A DNA stretch of 64,000 bases from a virus (lineage: Duplodnaviria; Caudoviricetes), in the IMG/VR virus record IMGVR_UViG_2654588123_000001, positions 8,932 through 72,931 of that record. One strand, 5' to 3'. Position 1 is the stretch's first letter, and every line of letters starts with the position of its first letter. Made by a program: the position numbers and the translations under genes. Shown in pieces: positions 6,221 through 43,005 of the stretch. The notes under the pieces are model-generated. The model ran no database searches and was not told where the DNA came from. It saw nothing but the letters and a program-made list of their open reading frames with translations.

Positions 6221-9200
6221 TTAATACCCCTTTATTTTTATGTCTACCGTTCCCGCCACTGCGGTATTGCTTGTGTTGAACACCTTGATAACGCACTCGG
6301 TCTTCGTCCTGCTTATCACCCTGGCGTGAACCGTTTCACCGATGGCATTGGCCGTCACATTTGGGACGGCATAGAAAGTATGCCCGTACGGAACGGTAGT
6401 GCCAGCCGCCGCTATCGAAGCAGTGATGGCGATATCCGTGTCCGGCACATCGATGCTGATGAGCAGGTGGTTGACCTCCGGTGTCTTATTGGTATTTTTC
6501 GTAGCCAGTTTCACCCGGAACTGAACGTACCTAAAACGCCGCTGCACCGGTTTGAACTCCGTCCAGTCCATCCAAATGCTGTTGTCAAGGGATGTACGGA
6601 ACTCCAAAACCGCAGACACATCCCCCGCATACATAACAGTCGAAACAAAGTACACGGAAATCTTCGCGGTAATGATGCTTCCGACATTGATCTTTGCCAG
6701 CGTGTAGGTGCCGCTTGCCGGATACTTCCCGGTCGAAGTGTTCAGTTTCAGTTTCAGTACCTGTGACCCGCCCAGGTCGGCAAACTTGGTCGTGGTATAG
6801 TCACTGAACCGGCCTCCCACAGTCTGGAAGTTGATACTTGATTCGCCGAACTCCGTGTTGCTGTGCGTACCGCTCTGCCGGGCAAGTTCGTCAAAGGTCT
6901 GAATGACGTTCTTCGGCGGCAGGTTCTCCACGTTGACCCGCGAGGTCCGTGCGGCAGAACTTTTGAAACCGGCCTTGTTGATGGCCACGATATGGTACTG
7001 ATAAAGCCTTTCAATATCCACCGGGACGGTAAAGAAGTTGTTCGTCACCCCGGTCGCCACCAAGGCGCCGGTATCAAAACTGGAACCTTCCCGTATCTCG
7101 TACCCGGTCACATCGATGTCCGTGCTGACCGTCCAGTACAGTTCAACCATCTCGCCGTCCTGGTACGCCACAAAATTCGTGCAGTTCGTGGGTTCCACCG
7201 TACACCGCAGGCTGGCCGACGTCTCATCCGAATAGAACCCCGCGCTGTTCAGCGTCCGGATCATGACATGGACGCTCTCCGTCTCTGTCAGGGTGTAGGT
7301 CGCATACAGTTCGTTGGTCAGCGGGATCTCCTCGGCGCTGTCCCAGTTATCCCCGACCTTCACCTGGTAACCCACAAGGTCACCGTCCGGGACGGCGTTC
7401 CATTGAATGTTCAGCTGGCTTCTATCCTTCGGGTTCTGCCGCAGCTGGATGACAGATACGGGCGTGGGCTCAAGGCCGAAGATGGCAGACACCTCCGCCG
7501 GGTACTGTGACTCGTTGCCCGCAATCGTCACCGCCTTAATCATCCACGAATACTGATGTTCCTCTTCAATCATCACTTCAAAAGTCGTACCGCTGACGCG
7601 CGGGGCGACCATACTCGCCGTGTTCCAGCTTGTGCCCTGCTTGATGATATAATAAGCAACATCGGTCTGGTTCACCGCATCCCAGGACAGCAGTACCGTG
7701 GTCTTGTTCACCGTGCTTTGCGCCGCCCGGAAATTGGTAACGTCCATCGGTTCTATCGTGATGGTAATGCTCGTGTTGGTTACGGCGGATTCAAACCCCG
7801 CCACCGTGACAGCCTTGACCATGACATTGTATGTACCGGAGGCCGGCACCTGCCACTCAAAACGATTATCCTTGATATCCACTATCTCCGTCCCATTCGC
7901 CCAGGTATTGCCATACCGTATCGAATAGTGGTCGATATCCTTGCCGGGGGAACGGGTGAACTTGATGACAGCCTTGCTCCGGTCCTTGGTACTCTGGGTT
8001 ACCGTCAGATCCGTCACGGCATCCGGTATCAGGTTCACTACCTTGGTCAGTCCCGTTGGGGCCTGTGAATAGACGTCAGCATTATTGATGGCGGAAATCC
8101 AGAATTTATAGGTTCCGCTCGATGCTACCTGGTAGGTGGTCTTCCGGGTCTTGGTCCTTGCGAACTGTGTGCCTGCCGCCCACGAGTTTCCCGCCCGCAG
8201 TTCATACTGGGAAAGGTCACTGTCCGTTACGGCATCCCAGGTGAATTCCAGTACGCTCCGGTCCGTGGTCTGCTGTGTGACCGCAAAGCCTGTCACGTTC
8301 GACGGATACGGATAGATGGGAATCTGGCAGCTTGCCCCAGCTGACTGGTTGCCTGCATTGTCTACGGCAAACACCGTCACCGTGGGATTTGCTGTATTGG
8401 ATACAATCGTGATGATATTGCTTGCCGTGGTATAGGTCTTGCCACCGGCAACAGAAACTTTATAGTTGCGGAAGTCGATGTCCGTATTCTCGTTCCAGGT
8501 CACCTCCGCCTTGGTACGGTCTGCCGGGTCAACCTTGTATGACAATCCCGTCACGGCCTTTGGCGGGACGTCCTGTCCGCAGGAAATAAGGCCGGTGGTA
8601 ACACCCGTGCTTTGGGATACCCCAAGAATCGTGACCACCTTGACATAGTAATCTGTCTTTGCCTTTACATTGAATTCGGCAAACGTGTTGGATGTCTCCG
8701 TAGCGTTGGTCCATTTTTTCTTGTCCGTAGAAATAAGTACCGTGTACCTGCCTCCGCCGCTGGCGCGTTTCCAGGAAACGCTCATCATGCCGTGCCGGAC
8801 GCGGTTCTCGTCGGTATACTGGAACTGCTTTGCTGACAGCCCGGTAACATTTTTCGCATTCCCCACAGCCTTTGTTGCATACTGGATGGGCGGTATCTCG
8901 TAGTTCTCCTCGAACAGGGCCTCCGCATACTCGATGCAGGTGATCCTCCGCGTGAAGTCCTGCGCACGGGTAATCGATTTCACAACGAACGGCTTTGAAC
9001 CGATGTTGGCAATAGCCAAATCGAAAACATCCCCTGCCTGGGGCGGGTCGCTCTCTGAATAGTCCGATTCCAGACCGATGGTAGTCCACCCATTTGAACT
9101 CGTCTCGATGATGGTACACGGAATCGTGTACAGGTTGTCCTTTACCGTCCTGAACTGGATGCGGTAGCTTTTGGTCGTATCACTGATATAAACCGGCAGG

Positions 9201-30621: not shown

Positions 30622-30782
30622 GTGTGTACCTCTCTTTGTTCTTTTCGAAGCAGCCGCTGCAGCCCTTTTTCCGCTTCAGCCACATTGCCTTTGACGGCCT
30701 GCCCTTTCAAAGTTCTGTACTGTTGTGGCGTCAGATATTTTTTGCACAGCTTCAGCTGATGCATAAACTCATACACGTTCAT
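30591..30782 (-). CDS. Small hypothetical phage protein
   Basis: MNVYEFMHQLK...LTPQQYRTLKGQAVKGNV; ATGA overlap with terS. Confidence 0.65.
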   Translation of the reverse strand: MNVYEFMHQLKLCKKYLTPQQYRTLKGQAVKGNVAEAEKGLQRLLRKEQREVHTWHSRCNRCQ

Positions 30783-31336
30783 CCCATACGCCCCTTCCTG
30801 GCCATCAGCAGTTTTTCCATCAAATCGTCCTGTGGACTTTCCCCGCCATACTCGCTGGCGCAGTTCTCTTTCACGATTTGGAATATCTCCATCCAAATCC
30901 GGTTCGCCTGGGATTTGTAGTCCTCCCCCATGGCCACGAACGGGCTTCTCTGCGCCTTGCCCGTTGTGGGATGCTTCGCAAGGTGACCAAATTCCGTCAC
31001 CGCTGCCTCACACTGCATCCACCGGGCATAACTCATGGAATACATTTCTAAAAGCTGCTTTGAAATTAAAGAGGAGCAACCCCTTTCATGGAGCCACTCC
31101 CACGCTTCTTTATATATTTCATCCGCCTGCAGCGGTTTTCCGTCTTTTTGTACCGCCGACAACATTTCGGAAGGCTTCGGCATCTCCTGCCCTTCCAGCT
31201 CGGCTGCGTTATCAAAATTTATGACCGTGATGGTGCGTTTACCAGGGTTGCCTTCCATAATCTTGTCCGCCAGCGGCTTTTTCTTCGCCCCGGCACCTGG
31301 CCTGGCACCTCCACGGTTCGTTCCGTCCTTCGCCAA
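30779..31336 (-). CDS. Terminase small subunit (P27-like)
   Basis: MAKDGTNRGGARPGAG.KKKP...GNPG; lies between HNH and terL. Confidence 0.88.
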   Translation of the reverse strand: MAKDGTNRGGARPGAGAKKKPLADKIMEGNPGKRTITVINFDNAAELEGQEMPKPSEMLSAVQKDGKPLQADEIYKEAWEWLHERGCSSLISKQLLEMYSMSYARWMQCEAAVTEFGHLAKHPTTGKAQRSPFVAMGEDYKSQANRIWMEIFQIVKENCASEYGGESPQDDLMEKLLMARKGRMG

Positions 31337-33222: not shown

Positions 33223-36200
33223 TTATGAAAGCAGGTTCTTGATTTTGGCACGCAAGCCCGTATCAAACTTAAAGCCTAAAAAATACTCCAGTTCCATACG
33301 GTCAAACCGTATCTTTGCACAATTCGTATCCGGTATTATGGTCGCACAAAGCTCGTTGGGAAGGGAATTTGCCCACTTCGTGCACAGTTTTTCACCTATG
33401 TTTTTATCCAGACAAATTATAACAAATTTTTCCTCAACCTTAAACATCTTTCTATTAGACCGATAAAGATCCTTTATTTCGTCCAATGCCTCTTCATAAG
33501 TAGGACGCGAATTATCACCATAATCCTCATCCCATGATAACACCTTCATATATTTTGGAACTTCATACCCATACTGACGAATAATATCCAAAATAATTTC
33601 CGAAGACCGTTTCATCAGTTCCGGAGAATATGTATCAGACAAATCTTTGCTTGTGTCAATCTTATCTAGTTCGTCAATCACATAAGGAAGCATCATAGAC
33701 AGATATTTCCGATAAAACGCGTTTCCCATCCTATGAATGATATGACCGCCTAATGTCTCATATTCCCTGCGAATCTGTTTACTGGGGAACTTAATATTAT
33801 AAGTCAGGAAAATCATCCGTTTACGGAGTTCTTTTTTAGGAGACGGATTATCATTACTGGCAAAGATAACCAACGGCTGGTTTTCGCGCATATGTTCTTC
33901 GCAACTTTGCGGGGACTTAATCATTTTACCAAATGAACTGACAAAATATTTATCTACTTCGTCAACAAAAATAGGAATACATTGATGAGACTCCTGGTAA
34001 GCAGCTAAATGGTCTCCTTTTGATACCGTTTTAGTACCCAATTGCTCATATTTATATCCGTTAACTTCTTTTCCCGTCATCATCTTTAATCCCAGTCTTA
34101 CCATAAATGTTTTCCCGCCGTCAGCTTTTGAATTTAAAAGCATGTACAGCGGAAGGGCTGATAATCCTTCAATTTTCTTGACTTTAGCCCTGCAACGGAA
34201 TATGGCATTAAAAACAGAAGAAAACATGGCGTTCAATAGTTTAAAATGATTGTGCTGTGCCGGCAAGATATTTCTAACCGGAACAAAACTCTTATAGTTT
34301 TCAAATGCCCCCAGCAAAAGCGATATATCCGTTTTCACTTCGTCATCAGAAGGGGACAAGTCTAATTCCTCATTACCAATGAAAACTTTATGAGCGCCGT
34401 AATCTATATTCATTCGGGGATAACCTTCAGATATCTGTTCCACTGTAACTTTTTTCAAACGGCACGTTTCTTCATTTACAAGAATTTTGTTTATCGTTTT
34501 AGCCGTAATTACTACATAGCCGTCTTTATTTTCCTTTAGCCTGGTGTTCTTTAAACATTCCTTGTACAGCGGTTCAAACTCTTCCATATCCTTATTGTAA
34601 TTTACAATAGTTAACTTTGTTTCTGGATTATCAACTTTTTGAACAACAATCGCAGTATCCACATATTTCGTTGCCTCTTCAATAATGGGATTCTCTTTAA
34701 GAGAAACTGGATCATTTTCATTCATAACCGCAGTATCTTCCTGTACGTTGGCATCTAAAACCACAGAAGAAGATAAGCTCTGTATTGTCTTAAAATCCTG
34801 TAAAACCATCTCATAAAATTCGTTATCGTCACAGAACGGATAATCTTCAATATGATGGTTCACATTCCATGCCGAGCCGGACAAATTAGCAGAAGGAAAA
34901 ATAACGCGGGTGCGACCATCATCTGCTTTCAATAAATAAATCTTCCTGTGGTCACACAGAAATTTAGGACATTTAATGTTTACCTCGCCTTCGATAACAC
35001 GTTTCGCAAATTCCTGATTATTACAAGCCAGTCGTTTCACGTTATGAGCGGACGCCAATATATATGCCATTTGTTCTGTAAGGGATTTATTAATCTTTTC
35101 ACTCAAAAATTCGGCACCGACCACGATATCCACAGTTTTAAATTTACTGCTCAATCTGGCTGCAAAGTTAAAATCAAACGAAAATGTAATTACCTTCAAA
35201 TCTGTGTATTCGCCTTCAAATAGATCCAAAGGATCTTGAAACAGCATCTCTTTAAAGTTCATGGAATAACATCTTGCCTTAAATCTATCTGTTCCTGCGC
35301 ACACAAATAAAATTTTCTCACACGTAAACGTGTGCGGAAATTTTTCTTTTATTACTTCAGCAACCTCAGTCAGATTTTTACAATTTTCAAACTCAACAAC
35401 TTCCGTAAGATGAATATCCTTATTGTAATCCGTGACCACGAAGTCTGTATCCTGGTTAGAAATATTTGGTAACGCATTCCAGTTCCAAACCCCAATCGCA
35501 GAATCAACATCTGGACCGTTCTTCCAGAACAAGCTTTTACGGTTTTCGAAGTATTTAGGTTTATTAGGGTCAAACATAAAAATCCTGATTTCCCCATTAA
35601 CTATATCAGCAATGCGATTAATCCATCTTTTTTCAGCAAAATGGTCTTGTTTCACCTGCCCAATAGATATATGCTGAAATTTGTTTTCGACAATATTTTC
35701 TTCATCGTCAGCGTAATTCGCCAAATCTCTATAGTGGTCTAACTCGGACTGTATTGCTGTAATGTTTTTGTCTTTACTTTCTAATTCTGCTTGTAATTGA
35801 ACAATCTCATCATTAGTTGCATTATATTTTGTTTCTACAGCAGTCAAGGTTTGTTCTTTTTCTCTAATGACTTCTTCTAATTCATTTATTCTATTATTTG
35901 CCTTAACTAATTCCTCCTTAATTTCACTAATAGCGTTAGTTGTATTCGAAAACTTCACTTTTGGCTGTATCAAAAGCACGTCTTTAAAAAGTTTAATATA
36001 ATCCTTGCTCCTAGTATCATTGGTAAGTTTAAAATACAAATCTACATTCTCGTTAAAAACACTTATCGGAATTGTTTTTAAAAGGGCTTCGTTTTTTGAC
36101 AACCCTTCATCTTCAAGTTTTTTACTATATACATTAATCTCTCTTAACCATTTCCGAACCACCTCTGTCATAAAACGATTGATGAAAGGTTTTTCTATGT

Positions 36201-36375
36201 TATTTATTACTAGTGTAATCGTATCCTTATCCGATAACTTTGCAGCACGGAATCCTGGTCGTATATGAGCAAACTCTTTAGAGTTTTGTTCAAAACATTT
36301 ACGTATCTCAGAAAGATCTATTTGCTTGCATAAATATTTGATTTCCTCTTTTGTTAAACTAGTAAGTACTATCAT
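33223..36375 (-). CDS. 1050-aa protein: coiled coil + PLD-like (HxK...SAN) domain + P-loop ATPase
   Basis: DHRKIYLL...FPSANLSG; SKADGGKTF; IFVDEVD; helical segment at about aa 150-215; low GC. Confidence 0.7.
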   Translation of the reverse strand: MIVLTSLTKEEIKYLCKQIDLSEIRKCFEQNSKEFAHIRPGFRAAKLSDKDTITLVINNIEKPFINRFMTEVVRKWLREINVYSKKLEDEGLSKNEALLKTIPISVFNENVDLYFKLTNDTRSKDYIKLFKDVLLIQPKVKFSNTTNAISEIKEELVKANNRINELEEVIREKEQTLTAVETKYNATNDEIVQLQAELESKDKNITAIQSELDHYRDLANYADDEENIVENKFQHISIGQVKQDHFAEKRWINRIADIVNGEIRIFMFDPNKPKYFENRKSLFWKNGPDVDSAIGVWNWNALPNISNQDTDFVVTDYNKDIHLTEVVEFENCKNLTEVAEVIKEKFPHTFTCEKILFVCAGTDRFKARCYSMNFKEMLFQDPLDLFEGEYTDLKVITFSFDFNFAARLSSKFKTVDIVVGAEFLSEKINKSLTEQMAYILASAHNVKRLACNNQEFAKRVIEGEVNIKCPKFLCDHRKIYLLKADDGRTRVIFPSANLSGSAWNVNHHIEDYPFCDDNEFYEMVLQDFKTIQSLSSSVVLDANVQEDTAVMNENDPVSLKENPIIEEATKYVDTAIVVQKVDNPETKLTIVNYNKDMEEFEPLYKECLKNTRLKENKDGYVVITAKTINKILVNEETCRLKKVTVEQISEGYPRMNIDYGAHKVFIGNEELDLSPSDDEVKTDISLLLGAFENYKSFVPVRNILPAQHNHFKLLNAMFSSVFNAIFRCRAKVKKIEGLSALPLYMLLNSKADGGKTFMVRLGLKMMTGKEVNGYKYEQLGTKTVSKGDHLAAYQESHQCIPIFVDEVDKYFVSSFGKMIKSPQSCEEHMRENQPLVIFASNDNPSPKKELRKRMIFLTYNIKFPSKQIRREYETLGGHIIHRMGNAFYRKYLSMMLPYVIDELDKIDTSKDLSDTYSPELMKRSSEIILDIIRQYGYEVPKYMKVLSWDEDYGDNSRPTYEEALDEIKDLYRSNRKMFKVEEKFVIICLDKNIGEKLCTKWANSLPNELCATIIPDTNCAKIRFDRMELEYFLGFKFDTGLRAKIKNLLS

Positions 36376-36423: not shown

Positions 36424-38046
36424 TCATTTTATCAACTTATTTAAATTAGTAATTCTCATGAATTCTGGTTTTCGCATTTGTTTTAACAATGCAATACTGA
36501 TTTCTTGATTGTTAATCAAAGCCATAATTTTATGATATGTTTGAAGGTAACCGTTCCTCTTTAACAGTCTTATGCCGTAATACGCCCACATAGGAATAGG
36601 AACCATCTGCCCACAAATACAATTCGTTAACGACTTTGCTAACTCTTTATCTTCAATTTCAATTCTTTGCCCCTTAACGTGTGCTTTGATATGAAAAGCA
36701 ATTCCCGATTCAATGATTAAATACATCTCATTTGTGTTAGTTTTGTAAGGAATTGCGGTTAACGCACTTCTAATCGGTTCATAACGAAACGTCCGGTTTA
36801 AACTCCCAATATATAACTCCATTTTGCTGTTCGCAATTACTGAAAAATCGGACTTAAAGATATCCTCTGTTACTTTATCCCATGGGGTTATTACATGATT
36901 TGGCCGTTCAATTTGTATTTCGTATGAAAAGTTTGGCCTAATAATAAACCTATCCTGAAAAACGGCTTCCCTTCCAACATATTTCCTGTCAACAGAAAGA
37001 ATTGATGGCGTTTTCCCAACATAAATCTCAGTAGTATAACCACCTGAACGGTTTCTATGCAAGTCAACAGGTGCTGTCGCAAATTCTTTATACAGATACA
37101 CATTTGGGCTGCTATTGCCGCTTGAAACAGAACAAACAACAGAAGAATTATTTTTAACAGGAATAAAAAATTCTTGAACCACTACCGGTGGCCATAACGG
37201 AATTAACTCAGGTTGTTTTTCTAATAACACTACCCCAAAAAACCTGTTAAAATAGTCGCTAACGGCCAAAAAACGAGCTTTGTTATCTAAATCTACGTTG
37301 ATTTCAAATACATACACCTTGTAAGCGTTATTTTTTAAGTACAGTTTTCCTATCTCTGTACATTTTATTTCTTTATGAGGCGGAATGCCAATCTTTGTCA
37401 CAAGATAGTAGGTGCGTTGTGTCGAAATACAGTCCCCTCTGCGGATTTTTTTCCCGCCGGTTTCTTCAAAAGAAAATATAGCGCCACCAACGCCAAAACC
37501 ATCCGCAAAACCTGCCCATTGTTTTGAAAACAATCGCATTGAAGAAGTACCGCTAATTTCAATACTATAGTTTCTAGTATTTTTAGGAACAAAATTTACA
37601 GGTATCAGTGTGAGCCGGTCTTCAAAAAAGTTGCTCGAATCTATTCTTTTGGCGATTTTAGTATTGTTATCACCAATAATATTAACTATCAACTTTTGCG
37701 TTTCCGCTTGCATGAGAAGATGTCTGCCTATGGCAGGGAACCCTATATTTAATTGCAGGTTACCGCTGACAACACCAGTTAAATATAACGACAGTCCAAC
37801 CCGTTGGTACAGGCTTAATTTAGCATGACCGTCTACCCTTTTGTCACATTCAGGCGTTTGATCTGTTTTGACTTTATGATAAAAGTGATTAGGTTGGTTA
37901 CCACCTTTTGATCTAAAATAAACAATCTCGCCGCATTCAGGACAGCGAAAACGTGACAATTTATTAGGAATGTACTTTCCATAAAAATCATCAGCACAAA
38001 CCTCTATTTCTGTCCCAATCGCATACCTGTCAACTGCGTATCTCAC
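36424..38046 (-). CDS. Hypothetical protein with N-terminal Zn-finger-like (CoiA-type) module
   Basis: FRCPECGE...FYH...PEC; GTG start with GGAGG RBS. Confidence 0.7.
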   Translation of the reverse strand: MRYAVDRYAIGTEIEVCADDFYGKYIPNKLSRFRCPECGEIVYFRSKGGNQPNHFYHKVKTDQTPECDKRVDGHAKLSLYQRVGLSLYLTGVVSGNLQLNIGFPAIGRHLLMQAETQKLIVNIIGDNNTKIAKRIDSSNFFEDRLTLIPVNFVPKNTRNYSIEISGTSSMRLFSKQWAGFADGFGVGGAIFSFEETGGKKIRRGDCISTQRTYYLVTKIGIPPHKEIKCTEIGKLYLKNNAYKVYVFEINVDLDNKARFLAVSDYFNRFFGVVLLEKQPELIPLWPPVVVQEFFIPVKNNSSVVCSVSSGNSSPNVYLYKEFATAPVDLHRNRSGGYTTEIYVGKTPSILSVDRKYVGREAVFQDRFIIRPNFSYEIQIERPNHVITPWDKVTEDIFKSDFSVIANSKMELYIGSLNRTFRYEPIRSALTAIPYKTNTNEMYLIIESGIAFHIKAHVKGQRIEIEDKELAKSLTNCICGQMVPIPMWAYYGIRLLKRNGYLQTYHKIMALINNQEISIALLKQMRKPEFMRITNLNKLIK

Positions 38047-39147: not shown

Positions 39148-40500
39148 TCATACCTCCAGCACCGCTTTCACGGCGTCAATCAGTGCGGCCTGCGTCTCAT
39201 CCTTCCGGTTCAATGCAGCCATCACTTGTTCATCCATGGTATCTTCCGTCAGGATATGGTGGATGACCACCGGTTCCTTCTGCCCCTGCCGCCACAGGCG
39301 TGCGTTGGTCTGCTGGTAGAGTTCCAGGCTCCAGGTCAGCCCAAACCAGATAAGCGTGCAGCCACCATACTGAAGGTTCAACCCATGCCCGGCAGATGCA
39401 GGATGGATGACTGCCACGGGAATCTTCCCTCCGTTCCAGTCAGTAATATCCCGCGCGGTCTTCAGTTCACGGACATCGAACCGCTTACGGATCCGAGCCA
39501 GGTCATGCCGGAACCAGTAACACACCAGGATGGGTTTTCCGTTTGCGGCTTCTATCAGATCTTCCAACGCATCCAGTTTCCGGTCATGTATGTGATGCTC
39601 ATTATGCTCTGCGTCATAGATTGCACCGTTTGCCATCTGCAGCAGCTTGTTGGTCAGCGCTGCTGCGTTCATGGCATCAATCTCTTCATCGCCCAGGGAA
39701 AGCACCATCTGTTTGCGGAACTCTTCATACATCCCCCGTTCCCTGTCGGACAGTTTCACCTTCACCTCGTTATGGATGCAGGCAGGGAGGTCCAGGTAAT
39801 CCTCCGCTTTCATGGAGATGGTGATGTCCGAGATGGCGTTATAGATCTGTTCCTCTGCGCCCGGGCGGAGTTTGTAAGTGAACACCACCTGGGCATTCCG
39901 CTTATCCGGCAAAAAATACCGGTCACGGTAACGGCTGATATATCTTCCCAGCCGGGCTCCGTAGTCCAGTATCTTAAATTCTGCAAACAAATCCATGAGG
40001 CCGTTGCTAGACGGGGTACCGGTAAGGCCGACAATCCTTGACACCAGGCTCCTTACCGACATAAGGCTGCGGAAGCGTTTTGCCTGATGGTTCTTGAACG
40101 ATGACAGTTCATCGATTACAACCATGTCAAAGTCAAAGGGTATCCCGCTTTCCTCCACCAGCCACTGCACGTTCTCCCGGTTGATGATGTAAATATCAGC
40201 CTTTGCCCGTAATGCGGCCAGCCTCTCATCCTTAGAACCAATAGCCACAGCATACGTCAGCCCTTCCAGATGATCCCACTTCTCTATCTCCGCAGGCCAG
40301 GTGTCCCTGCCGACACGCAACGGGGCTATGACAAGAACCCTGCCCACTTCAAAACGTTCATATATAAGTTCCTTAATGGCTGTCAGGGTGATAACAGTCT
40401 TGCCTCAACCCAAGCCCATATCCAGAAATACCGCCGCAATAGCGCGGTTCACAATATAATCAATCGCATACTGCTGGTAACCATGTGGTACGAACTTCAT
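39148..40500 (-). CDS. SNF2-family helicase with an in-frame TGA (40405-40407) inside Walker A; recoded gene or pseudogene
   Basis: From ATG 40500: MKFVPHGYQQYAID...FLDMGLG*GKTVITLTAI...VVIDELS...GLTGTPSSNG...GHGLNLQ...QTNARLWRQGQ. Confidence 0.85.
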
Positions 40501-40784
40501 CAGGCATCACCTCCAATCTTCTGTAACACTTCTTCTATCTGATCTGTTCCGTCCACCACAAACACCTGGAAACCCAGCCGCCGGAGCTGGCTGATACGCC
40601 TTATCTGCAGCGGCCTTGGCTTCCTTCCGGGCGCCTTTACTTCCACAAACGCAGCCTTGCCCCCAGGCATCAGTACCAGGCGGTCGGGTACACCGGCACA
40701 GCCGGGAGAGATGAACTTCAGCGCCACCCCTCCCAATCGTGACGTCATTCTGACTAACTTCTGTTCAATCCGCTTCTCTTCCAT
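40500..40784 (-). CDS. VRR-NUC domain nuclease
   Basis: GVPDRLVL..GKAAFVEVKAPGRKPRPLQ. Confidence 0.92.
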   Translation of the reverse strand: MEEKRIEQKLVRMTSRLGGVALKFISPGCAGVPDRLVLMPGGKAAFVEVKAPGRKPRPLQIRRISQLRRLGFQVFVVDGTDQIEEVLQKIGGDA

Positions 40785-43005
40785 CAAGGAACTCCTCCAC
40801 ACGCAGGCGTAGTCCCAGGATGAACCGCCCTTTCATGTTCCGGTACTTCTCGAACCCGGCGTTCTGCAGCGCCGCATAGAAATCGGAAGTGCTTCGGGCG
40901 TATTCACCCATGCGCATACAGTAATTCCGGTACTGCGTATACAGGTTACCGGACCGTTCCTGGTACCTCTTGTCCACATCACAGCAGTCTTCAATGAAAT
41001 GTCCCAGCCAGTTGTTGCTGTCGCGGTACTCGTGGATAGCATCCTCAACAATCCGGGGTCGGGCTATGTGGAACTTGTCCTTTATGATGGCCTGCGCGCC
41101 TTCGATGATCCATGCAAGGATGGCGGGACCGGCCTTTTCAACCAGGTAGTCCCCGTAGTTCTTGATGTCATCCCTGCCCTCTATCTTTGCCAGGAACGGT
41201 ATCACTATAAGCCGCCGCCATGTGCCGGGGTCGTTCGCACCCACCCTGGGAAGGTAGTTACTGTACAGCACCAGCGTATGGGTCGGTGTGAAGTAAAACG
41301 GATCCTTGTATTTCTTCTCTGCGTAGATGTCATCGGTACTGCAAAGCTGTTTGATGTTGCTGGTATTGAGCCTCTGCCCTTCTTCCAGCTCGGCTGCAAT
41401 CAGCAACCGCTTCCCCTTTGCCTCCGCAAGCTCCGGTTTCACGTTCCGCTTGCAGCCGACCGTCAGCGTATCCGCCGACATCTTCCCGGCATAGGTGCCA
41501 AGGACATAGGCGATGGTGTTCCAAAAGGTTGACTTCCCGTTCCTCCCGTCGCCGTAGGCGATGATGAAGGCCTCCACATACACCTTTCCGATAGCCGCAA
41601 GTCCTGCGATGCGCTGGACGTAATCTACCAGTTCCCGGTCCCCACGGAAGAAGATGTCCAAGGCTTCCATCCAGGTATCCATCCCATCATAACCGGGTGA
41701 TACATTGGTAATCTTGGTGATATAGTCCCCCGCCTGGTGTTCCCGGATGCCGTCCAGCCCGTCCGGCAGATAATAGGTGCCTTCCGGTGTATTCAGAAGG
41801 AAGCCGTCCCTGTCCAGTTCTCTCTCACTGATAGTGAGCATCGGCGTCGCGGCGACCAGGCAGGACTTGAGATACTTCGTGTCCCTGCGGGTGATGACGA
41901 ACTGATGATACTGGACGGCATTCCTGTATGCGTCATAGGCCTTGCGCTGGTTATCGTCCATCAGCTGCATGGCCTTCGTCTTGCTGTTGGTCAGGAGGAT
42001 GGTGGCGGCACCCTGGTCGGCGATGACCGTCCACGCCTTTGCCATCATGTCCTCCGCTTCCTTCATCTGCCTGTCCGTCAGTTCCTGGCAGGCGCCCAAT
42101 GCAAGTTCCCTGGATTCGTCCCAGTTCTTACCGTTATAGCGGATGAAACCGGTCGCCGGGGAATATCGCAGTTCATCCCGGAACTCCCTTGCCAGCACAC
42201 GCGCCTGCCCCACATCGGAGTAATCAGCGGGTTTCAGCGTGAACTCCGCGTTGAACACTTCCGGCGGGATGTACCCCGGCTGGCTTGTCACCTTCCTGCC
42301 GAACTTCACGGCGCTCTTCCATATCTTGTTCAGTTCCTCATCGTCCAACGGAGGGTTGCATTTTGATGCCTGCTCCATAAAGGCCTGATACGCCTCCGGT
42401 GTGTCACCCAGCCGTTTGATGATGCGTCCGGCAAAATGTGACATGGTGGCATTACGCCTGCCTTCCGGGATGCCTGACTCCACAGGTTGCATCAGCTGGT
42501 CGATGGTCTTTTCCCCATCGACCCAGACCACTTCCGTCTGGTCTGAACCATAGATGAACCGTGCGGCATCCATGGCATTATCGTCAAAGAAGGGGTACTG
42601 GAACAGTATCTCCTGCTTGATGCGTACATACTCTTCCGGATCGGTGCATTCCGTTATCGGGAAATACACATGGAACCTGGGCCGGGCTGATTTGCCTTCC
42701 TTCGGTTTCCCATGGTTCCTGGAAAAGAAGAACGCCATCTGCACATCCGGGAATGCCTTCTTCACTTTGGCAGGCGTCACCCATTCCGTGGGTTCCTCGG
42801 TATGGTCGTTATCGCAGTCCATGACGAGGCAGTCCGCAACCAGGAAATTGTCGTTGCTGCGGTAGCTGTTCTTAAAGGCGGCGCAGACATGGTCTTTCTG
42901 CACGGCCTGCCGGAAACCGTCAGCATCCGTGATTTCGTGCCTGTGCGGGTACAGGCAGTTCTTCTCCCTGCCTGTGCAGTCCGCTGAATAAATCGTTAAC
43001 TTCAT
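40765..43005 (-). CDS. Primase/helicase, P4/D5 family (primase-PriCT-SF3 helicase)
   Basis: DCDNDH, PRFHVYFP, GRRNATM, YGDGRNGKSTF, KYKDPF. Confidence 0.93.
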   Translation of the reverse strand: MKLTIYSADCTGREKNCLYPHRHEITDADGFRQAVQKDHVCAAFKNSYRSNDNFLVADCLVMDCDNDHTEEPTEWVTPAKVKKAFPDVQMAFFFSRNHGKPKEGKSARPRFHVYFPITECTDPEEYVRIKQEILFQYPFFDDNAMDAARFIYGSDQTEVVWVDGEKTIDQLMQPVESGIPEGRRNATMSHFAGRIIKRLGDTPEAYQAFMEQASKCNPPLDDEELNKIWKSAVKFGRKVTSQPGYIPPEVFNAEFTLKPADYSDVGQARVLAREFRDELRYSPATGFIRYNGKNWDESRELALGACQELTDRQMKEAEDMMAKAWTVIADQGAATILLTNSKTKAMQLMDDNQRKAYDAYRNAVQYHQFVITRRDTKYLKSCLVAATPMLTISERELDRDGFLLNTPEGTYYLPDGLDGIREHQAGDYITKITNVSPGYDGMDTWMEALDIFFRGDRELVDYVQRIAGLAAIGKVYVEAFIIAYGDGRNGKSTFWNTIAYVLGTYAGKMSADTLTVGCKRNVKPELAEAKGKRLLIAAELEEGQRLNTSNIKQLCSTDDIYAEKKYKDPFYFTPTHTLVLYSNYLPRVGANDPGTWRRLIVIPFLAKIEGRDDIKNYGDYLVEKAGPAILAWIIEGAQAIIKDKFHIARPRIVEDAIHEYRDSNNWLGHFIEDCCDVDKRYQERSGNLYTQYRNYCMRMGEYARSTSDFYAALQNAGFEKYRNMKGRFILGLRLRVEEFLDGREAD

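Follow-up and report, generated by a model that had tools for sequence, protein, structure and literature searches.

To our knowledge, efficient natural translational bypassing has essentially one well-studied bacterial example, that of phage T4 gene 60. The gene 60 bypass sits within a MobA homing-endonuclease cassette (Manning and Atkins, bioRxiv 10.1101/2022.08.31.505936; review PMC5009743), in which a 50-nucleotide (nt) gap prevents self-cleavage by MobA; many phages keep the gap after loss of the endonuclease. In synthetic stop-hops, a codon is followed by a stop and a synonymous codon, and the P-site tRNA re-pairs 6 nt downstream (PMC5009743); on natural in-frame stop hopping the same 2016 recoding review states that 'no occurrences are known'. 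The byps of Magnusiomyces capitatus mitochondria are many short bypassed inserts, with take-off/landing pairs that match at only two of three positions (PMC5009743). In the terminase of Streptomyces phage Hau3, a candidate UUA-mediated short bypass has some mass-spectrometry and mutational support, according to PMC10732093.

Here we describe a SNF2-type helicase gene, on the minus strand of a 64,000-nt stretch of a Caudoviricetes prophage (IMG/VR record IMGVR_UViG_2654588123_000001, positions 8,932 to 72,931; hereafter the window, to which coordinates refer), whose Walker A motif (motif I) is interrupted by a stop codon. The best explanation, which we regard as probable, is a +6 stop-hop over the UGA, the extra bases being derived from a mobile HNH_3 endonuclease cassette in which the gap protects its carriers. 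The geometry is exactly that of the synthetic stop-hops; those were engineered, whereas this arrangement is natural, conserved and selected. A literature search, in which coverage of subscription journals was incomplete, found no published description of such helicase coding gaps.

In the proposed event, GGU would occupy the ribosomal P site when UGA enters the A site; peptidyl-tRNA-Gly(GCC) would then unpair, the mRNA would slide by 6 nt, the tRNA would re-pair at GGC, and decoding would resume from AAG. The product would have a normal motif I, DMGLGKT, and its junction peptide would end ...AIAAVFLDMGLGK. Ribosomes that do not hop would terminate after 31 residues.

RESULTS

Motif I of the helicase is split by a stop codon and six extra nucleotides

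The features of the locus are as follows.

40408..40500, minus strand: helicase part 1, 31 codons from the ATG to the take-off GGT (40410-40408); its last residues are F L D M G L G
40405..40407, minus strand: TGA, the proposed untranslated gap, in the A site while GGT occupies the P site
40402..40404, minus strand: GGC, where landing is proposed; the next codons are AAG ACT (K T)
39148..40401, minus strand: helicase part 2, starting at the Lys of GKT and running to the stop codon; SNF2-type ATPase core, open frame
40500..40802, minus strand: VRR-NUC nuclease gene (Pfam PF08774, 4e-8; neighbour clustering)

A first-pass annotation of the window had described a TGA and six extra nt inside the Walker A motif of a SNF2 gene whose ATG overlaps the VRR-NUC stop, and had taken the remainder of the gene to be intact. 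Both descriptions were confirmed by reading the sequence and by the spacing in homologues. The helicase ATG lies at 40500-40498 and its A also ends the TGA stop of the VRR-NUC gene (a TGATG overlap). The last five codons of part 1 are GAT ATG GGC TTG GGT, so that the motif is GAT ATG GGC TTG GGT TGA GGC AAG ACT (D M G L G * G K T). Under standard decoding the TGA splits motif I (GxGKT), which would be whole in a single chain only after a hop. From the His of the N-terminal HxYQ to the Gly codon of GKT there are 81 nt here and exactly 75 nt in uninterrupted homologues; thus exactly 6 nt are extra. After the TGA the same frame is open for 418 codons, to a stop at 39148-39150, and part 2 matches SNF2-rel_dom (PF00176, 4e-17, 62.7 bits against a cut-off of 24.9) and DEAD (8.7e-7), with the helicase C-terminal domain (PF00271) at 17.2 bits, under its cut-off of 23.5. 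The window helicase is colinear over its full length with 160 homologues at 62-84% identity. It is single-copy in the genome, and the replication module is otherwise intact, with an exonuclease, a Gp2.5-like single-stranded DNA-binding protein, a DNA polymerase, a D5-type primase-helicase and the VRR-NUC nuclease.

The gap recurs in diverged homologues at several lengths

Homologues were collected as 80 IMG/VR loci and 80 loci from GTDB genomes, all of them relatives in the identity range given above; counts out of 160 include the window. Extra bases between the motif Gly codon and AAR-ACN were present in 47 of the 160 loci (39 after dereplication) and ranged from 4 to 8 nt, with 5 nt in 38 loci, 6 nt in four, 4 nt in three, and 7 and 8 nt in one each. 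A second set, obtained by a pattern scan of IMG/VR (ATGGGCTTRGGT, 4-12 nt, AARAC), added at least 79 further helicase matches (at least 65 dereplicated) with 4-10 extra nt. The gap itself is therefore 1-7 nt, the figures of 4-10 nt being reached when the duplicated Gly codon is counted. In each of the 47 gapped genes the downstream frame is complete and a K-T/S stands directly past the landing triplet. The phages with gapped helicases have hosts among Clostridia, Bacilli and Fusobacteria.

The four 6-nt members of the 160 are the window (GGT TGA GGC), L132 (GGT TGA GGA), L159 (GGT TGA GGT) and L152 (GGT TAA GGC), with uncultured Oscillospiraceae bacterium, Heliorestis and Anaerobacillus as the named sources; GGT TAA GGA is also found among the 6-nt variants. 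The check proposed in the first-pass annotation, that GGN-stop-GGN should recur with synonymous variation, thus came out positive, and in diverged homologues. At four loci the insertion is one Gly earlier in the motif (GAC ATG GGT TA GGT CTC GGT AAA).

The commonest gap, found in many 5-nt loci (e.g. L035, 1985-2005), is a perfect tandem duplication, TTAGG TTAGG (GGC TTA GGT TAG GAA). A +5 shift on this duplication offers matching triplets to the Leu codon in the E site (UUA) as well as to the Gly codon in the P site. The duplication could also be the fill-in repair footprint of a staggered cut.

Because every reading frame is represented among the gap lengths, the gapped genes as a whole cannot be decoded by any one frameshift or readthrough rule. 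Re-pairing immediately before AAR-ACN would give DMGLGKT in every gap class, and a hop is the only one of the decoding rules considered that is predicted to fit all lengths. Classical -1/+1 programmed frameshifting was considered and rejected: no slippery heptamer was found in the gapped genes, and normal decoding of the landing triplet after a frameshift would place Ser, Arg or Asp at the invariant Gly of the P-loop GK[TS], or else give a P-loop that varies in length from gene to gene.

Take-off context, A-site codon and landing triplet are constrained

The codons preceding the gap differ sharply in usage between gapped and uninterrupted genes. Among dereplicated genes, the take-off Gly is GGT in 39/39 gapped against 24/87 uninterrupted genes, the Gly two codons earlier is GGC in 37/39 against 3/87, the Leu before take-off is TTR in 36/39 against 15/87, and the Asp is GAT in 36/39 against 31/87. 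In gapped genes, and not in uninterrupted ones, the third positions of GAT, GGC and GGT have an entropy close to zero, and the five codons that precede the gap hardly vary in nucleotide sequence, against a near-saturated synonymous background. The Leu codon two positions upstream varies freely.

The A-site codon that follows GGT is a stop (TAG, TGA or TAA) in 37 of the 39 dereplicated gapped genes, TGA being the stop in the window, and is rarely TGG, CGG, AGG or TCG. The landing triplet always stands directly before AAR ACN. It is GGA, GGC or GGT in ∼87% of dereplicated genes and otherwise AGC, AGT, AGA or GAC, each a two-out-of-three match to a Gly codon; those that begin with A are found where they share bases with the stop (GGT TGA GCA...; GGT TAG CAA...). 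Natural variants of gap and landing triplet include ta-GGA, tg-AGC, tg-AGA, t-GAC, tgag-GGC and tgaaaa-GGC. In the window, the putatively untranslated bases are flanked by codons readable by one tRNA (GGT/TGA/GGC), as the first-pass annotation had supposed. This tRNA is tRNA-Gly(GCC), for which the genome has three genes.

Both halves of the gapped genes are under purifying selection, each in its own frame

In the 24 codons before the motif, gapped genes have synonymous differences (pS) of 0.60 and nonsynonymous differences (pN) of 0.17, giving a pN/pS of 0.29 in the 0 frame, compared with 1.2 and 1.5 for the same codons in the other two frames. The same upstream region of uninterrupted genes has a pN/pS of 0.275. 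Over the first 20 codons from the landing triplet, pN/pS in gapped genes is 0.26 in the landing frame and 1.1 and 2.6 in the others. With pS at 0.6-0.7 both upstream and downstream of the gap, these low, frame-specific ratios indicate that both pieces are translated, each in its own frame. Thus a conserved gap is flanked on both sides by an open reading frame (ORF) under purifying selection. With regard to a nascent-peptide signal, the mean identity of the 31-residue N-terminal part among gapped genes is 70%, which may be due to common descent.

The allele is real and TGA acts as a true stop in this host

Scanning metagenome contigs for exact 30-nt matches gave one independent contig, JAEEGG010183781.1, which aligns to window positions 40092-41709 at 95.4% identity (74 mismatches in 1618 aligned positions). 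It has the same GGT TGA GGC and an identical 31-residue N-terminal part, and its downstream helicase frame is intact over 424 codons, with a C-terminal half that diverges from that of the window. The first-pass annotation had named a sequencing error, or a TGA unique to this genome, as grounds for abandoning its proposal. The identical 30-nt stretch in an assembly that differs at 74 of 1618 positions, together with the same feature in dozens of diverged loci, excludes this, and the likelihood that we give to a sequencing or assembly error or a private mutation is negligible. The same prophage was not found in 60 related genomes, where the only helicases found were of ≤69% identity.

The similarity of JAEEGG010183781.1 to the window is ∼95% from the 3′ end of the primase gene to ∼310 nt into the helicase gene; beyond this, nucleotide similarity is gone and the frame is intact. 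The loss of similarity marks a recombination breakpoint within the helicase gene.

An alternative genetic code, selenocysteine insertion and a suppressor tRNA were each rejected as explanations. The host has a prfB gene (G000 contig 27, 18626-19669) whose internal TGA forms the classical +1 frameshift site; the genome was found to have no selenocysteine or suppressor tRNA, and the window no tRNA gene. TGA is thus a genuine stop in this host. Besides the three copies of tRNA-Gly(GCC), the host has tRNA-Gly with UCC and CCC anticodons and one tRNA-Trp(CCA). The presence of release factor 2 (RF2) autoregulation in the host could in principle modulate any UGA-dependent hop.

RNA structure near the gap

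The 6-bp hairpin at 40380-40397 that the first-pass annotation placed 3′ of the stop can be drawn, but it is not beyond what shuffled sequences give (fold z-score -0.86) and is therefore unsupported as a stimulator. In the 60 nt after the landing site, gapped genes are less structured than uninterrupted ones (median -5.6 vs -8.9 kcal/mol). Only a weak excess was seen for a 5′ stem just before take-off that pairs AAGCC (Lys-Pro codons) with GGCUU (p = 0.018; median -7.3 vs -6.0 kcal/mol). This stem was rejected as a general element, being confined to a subset of lineages and absent from the window (-4.1 kcal/mol).

The gap lies at a mosaic boundary and, in some relatives, near an HNH_3 endonuclease gene

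On a tree built from the C-terminal 418 residues, the gapped state is scattered: well-supported branches force at least 12 changes of state, and parsimony gives 17. The window groups with the uninterrupted L002 and with L003, which has 8 extra nt. Where a gapped gene matches an uninterrupted neighbour at 94-97% past the motif, identity ahead of the motif is only 29-67%. For the N-terminal part of the window helicase, identity is 71% with L003, 67% with members of the 4- and 5-nt classes and only 46% with L002, its closest relative in the C-terminal part.

The comparison of L067 (gapped) with L080 (uninterrupted) locates the boundary. The two are ∼90% identical in the VRR-NUC region, after which L067 has an insertion of ∼470 nt; identity is 63-72% over the first ∼130 nt of the helicase and reaches 91-98% directly past the motif. 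The mosaic boundary, of the kind left by a co-conversion tract, therefore falls at the gap. The gene inserted in L067, between VRR-NUC and the helicase, encodes an HNH_3 endonuclease (PF13392, 6.7e-16); another relative encodes an HNH_3 protein at L092 1385-1909. An HNH_3 gene stands directly upstream of the helicase ATG in 7 of the 47 gapped loci, and in 17 of 79 among the second-set matches listed. The cassette HNH family (>50% identity) occurs only in gapped loci (Fisher p = 1.3e-4, a value overstated because the loci are related). The extra bases are probably part of a mobile cassette, in which the gap is combined with a characteristic 5′ end of the helicase and with a gene for an HNH_3 homing endonuclease. 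By analogy, we infer that the HNH_3 endonuclease would cut the conserved Walker A DNA of uninterrupted helicase genes and that the gap would make carriers immune.

The only HNH gene of the window (PF01844, 31460-31903, minus strand, 147 aa) lies directly upstream of a Terminase_4 small terminase gene (30779-31336, minus strand). It was considered as the cassette endonuclease and rejected, since it belongs to a different family and sits beside the small terminase; HNH with small terminase is the usual packaging-associated pairing.

Three uninterrupted IMG/VR loci (L063, L066 and L074) have a distant 202-aa HNH protein, 28% identical to the cassette HNH, encoded directly upstream of a helicase with an unusual N-terminus and a DCGLGKT motif (GAT TGC GGT TTA GGA). 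These may represent a second type of cassette, in which self-cleavage is avoided by substitutions and not by a gap.

Gapped helicases in an isolated phage and in public annotation

Fusobacterium phage phiPaco (OR492274, L315; source 'rumen fluid enrichment') has GAT ATG GGC TTA GGT TGA GAA AAA CA..., in which the gap is parsed GGT-tg-AGA-AAA-ACA, and its helicase is annotated as a 31-residue ORF plus a 'DNA helicase'. According to a review, phiPaco is among six newly isolated F. necrophorum phages. The helicases of Erysipelothrix phage phi1605 (MF172979, L162) and of Ca. Heliusvirales gut phages are likewise annotated as split or truncated. In three public records (L162, L315 and L316, the last being PV036419), the gene is given either an internal start that loses Walker A or a 31-residue 'hypothetical protein' followed by a helicase. 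Split or truncated annotation of gapped helicases is a systematic artefact.

Other genes of the window

Between a DUF1492 sigma-like gene and the packaging genes lie two ORFs on the minus strand, 33223-36375 (1050 aa) and 36424-38046 (540 aa). Neither has a PHROG match, and the 540-aa ORF has only sub-threshold zinc-ribbon matches in Pfam.

DISCUSSION

Weighing the alternatives

If the six extra nt were simply read through, with a near-cognate tRNA (e.g. Trp) decoding the UGA, the product would be DMGLG-x-GKT, with two extra residues. The frame is preserved in the window and in the other 6-nt members, so that a full-length protein would be possible, and given the Gly-x-Gly periodicity its motif I would still end in a GxGKT P-loop; both points count for readthrough and against a hop at this locus. 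However, 6 nt is a minority length, and readthrough cannot rescue the genes with 4, 5, 7, 8, 9 or 10 extra nt that predominate, with which the 6-nt genes share the GAT ATG GGC TTR GGT take-off context. Several 6-nt members have TAA, a poor readthrough codon, in place of TGA, and neither the window nor the genome supplies a suppressor or selenocysteine tRNA. Readthrough is thus a minority alternative for this in-frame member, and we consider it unlikely. A little less likely still is that the 6 nt are a cassette or imprecise-repair scar that has inactivated a dispensable helicase, from which no full-length protein is made. The ORF is indeed interrupted under standard decoding, GenBank annotators treat such genes as truncated or split, and spread of a selfish cassette is possible even when it harms the carrier. 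Loss of function is hard to reconcile with purifying selection on both halves at near-saturated synonymous divergence, with the complete downstream frame and K-T/S after landing in all 47 gapped genes, with the conservation of the gap context at synonymous sites, with a replication module that is otherwise intact in the window, and with the presence of the gap in the isolated phage phiPaco. Recoding and a 6-bp insertion scar had been posed as alternatives in the first-pass annotation; both appear to hold, since the scar, tied at the family level to the HNH cassette, lies in a gene that is still under selection. Such selection despite the gap requires recoding.

That recoding might be replaced by a restart, giving a 31-residue peptide and a separately initiated C-terminal protein that lacks Walker A, seems very improbable. 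A GTG-started ORF of 399 aa does exist at 39148-40347 (GTG at 40347), and the phi1605 helicase is annotated from an internal start of this kind. The 20 codons between the landing site and such starts are, however, selected in the landing frame (the pN/pS of 0.26 given above), the Lys-Thr/Ser of the GKT type is kept in every gapped gene, and the first in-frame start past the landing site varies from codon 3 to codon 52. A superfamily 2 ATPase without the P-loop lysine is not expected to hydrolyse ATP.

Several further observations weigh against the hop and its link to a cassette. Hopping is the most likely decoding here, and both the hop and its efficiency are inferred from comparison only; short hops measured in synthetic constructs have been described as low-level events, so the efficiency may be poor. 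No conserved stimulatory RNA structure was found 5′ or 3′ of the gap in gapped genes, and common descent of the cassette could contribute to the conservation of the GAT-GGC-TTR-GGT codons. Only 15-20% of gapped loci have an HNH gene, which makes the evidence for a homing or immunity role indirect. Neither an HNH_3 gene nor a homologue of the cassette HNH was found in this genome (98% complete) by protein or family search. As the gap and the cassette-type 5′ end are present without HNH_3, the window most likely carries an endonuclease-free, presumably immune allele.

Comparison with described systems

The resemblance to T4 gene 60 extends to several features. In both, the take-off codon encodes Gly and precedes a stop or hungry codon (a rule described for gene 60 homologues), the landing codon is a matching Gly codon, and a replication enzyme is interrupted by the gap in one of its highly conserved parts. 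The endonuclease gene, free-standing and of the HNH type, lies just upstream, here in some relatives, and alleles with the gap and without the endonuclease occur, as in the window. The two systems differ in the gene (topoisomerase vs SNF2 helicase), the take-off codon (GGA vs GGU), the length of the gap (50 nt vs 1-7 nt), the endonuclease family (HNH_3 here) and the hosts (Clostridia, Bacilli and Fusobacteria here). No take-off stem-loop or conserved 3′ structure was found in the helicases.

The candidate bypass in the Hau3 terminase is alike in that it spans a short distance, lies in a phage gene and has an A-site codon that is slow to decode; it differs in the gene, in its trigger (a rare sense codon tied to the host life cycle), in having no endonuclease link and in being proposed as regulatory. 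The mitochondrial byps are also short inserts in coding genes that are bypassed, including at two-out-of-three pairs, but they are longer, belong to mitochondrial translation and are spread over many genes, compared with one site in one bacterial-virus gene family. In the +1 frameshift of prfB, as in the hop proposed here, an in-frame UGA in the A site provokes re-pairing of the P-site tRNA, and both may depend on the RF2 level. The prfB shift is +1 onto an overlapping codon and has an upstream Shine-Dalgarno stimulator, whereas in the helicases the re-pairing site is non-overlapping and the change of frame varies among homologues.

Implications

As a tentative generalization, which at present we would not favour over its negation, ribosomes of diverse bacteria may hop 4-10 nt from GGU over a stop well enough for phage replication, with no conserved signal other than ∼15 nt, GAU AUG GGC UUR GGU, and the stop after it, and the gap may be kept as an immunity allele against a Walker A-targeting HNH endonuclease. 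If true, the helicases would supply the first in-frame stop-hop found in nature, in the form of a minimal and portable bypass element, and the diversity of gap lengths would reflect an ongoing contest between endonuclease and target. The gapped helicase genes, well over a hundred in number, would form a natural mutational series for the requirements of short hops: no length between 4 and 10 extra nt is missing, the take-off context is sharply conserved, and the landing triplets are relaxed. The finding would also correct the systematic mis-annotation of helicases deposited as truncated or split, and it would make the pairing of a homing endonuclease with a protective coding gap a general strategy, not a T4 oddity.

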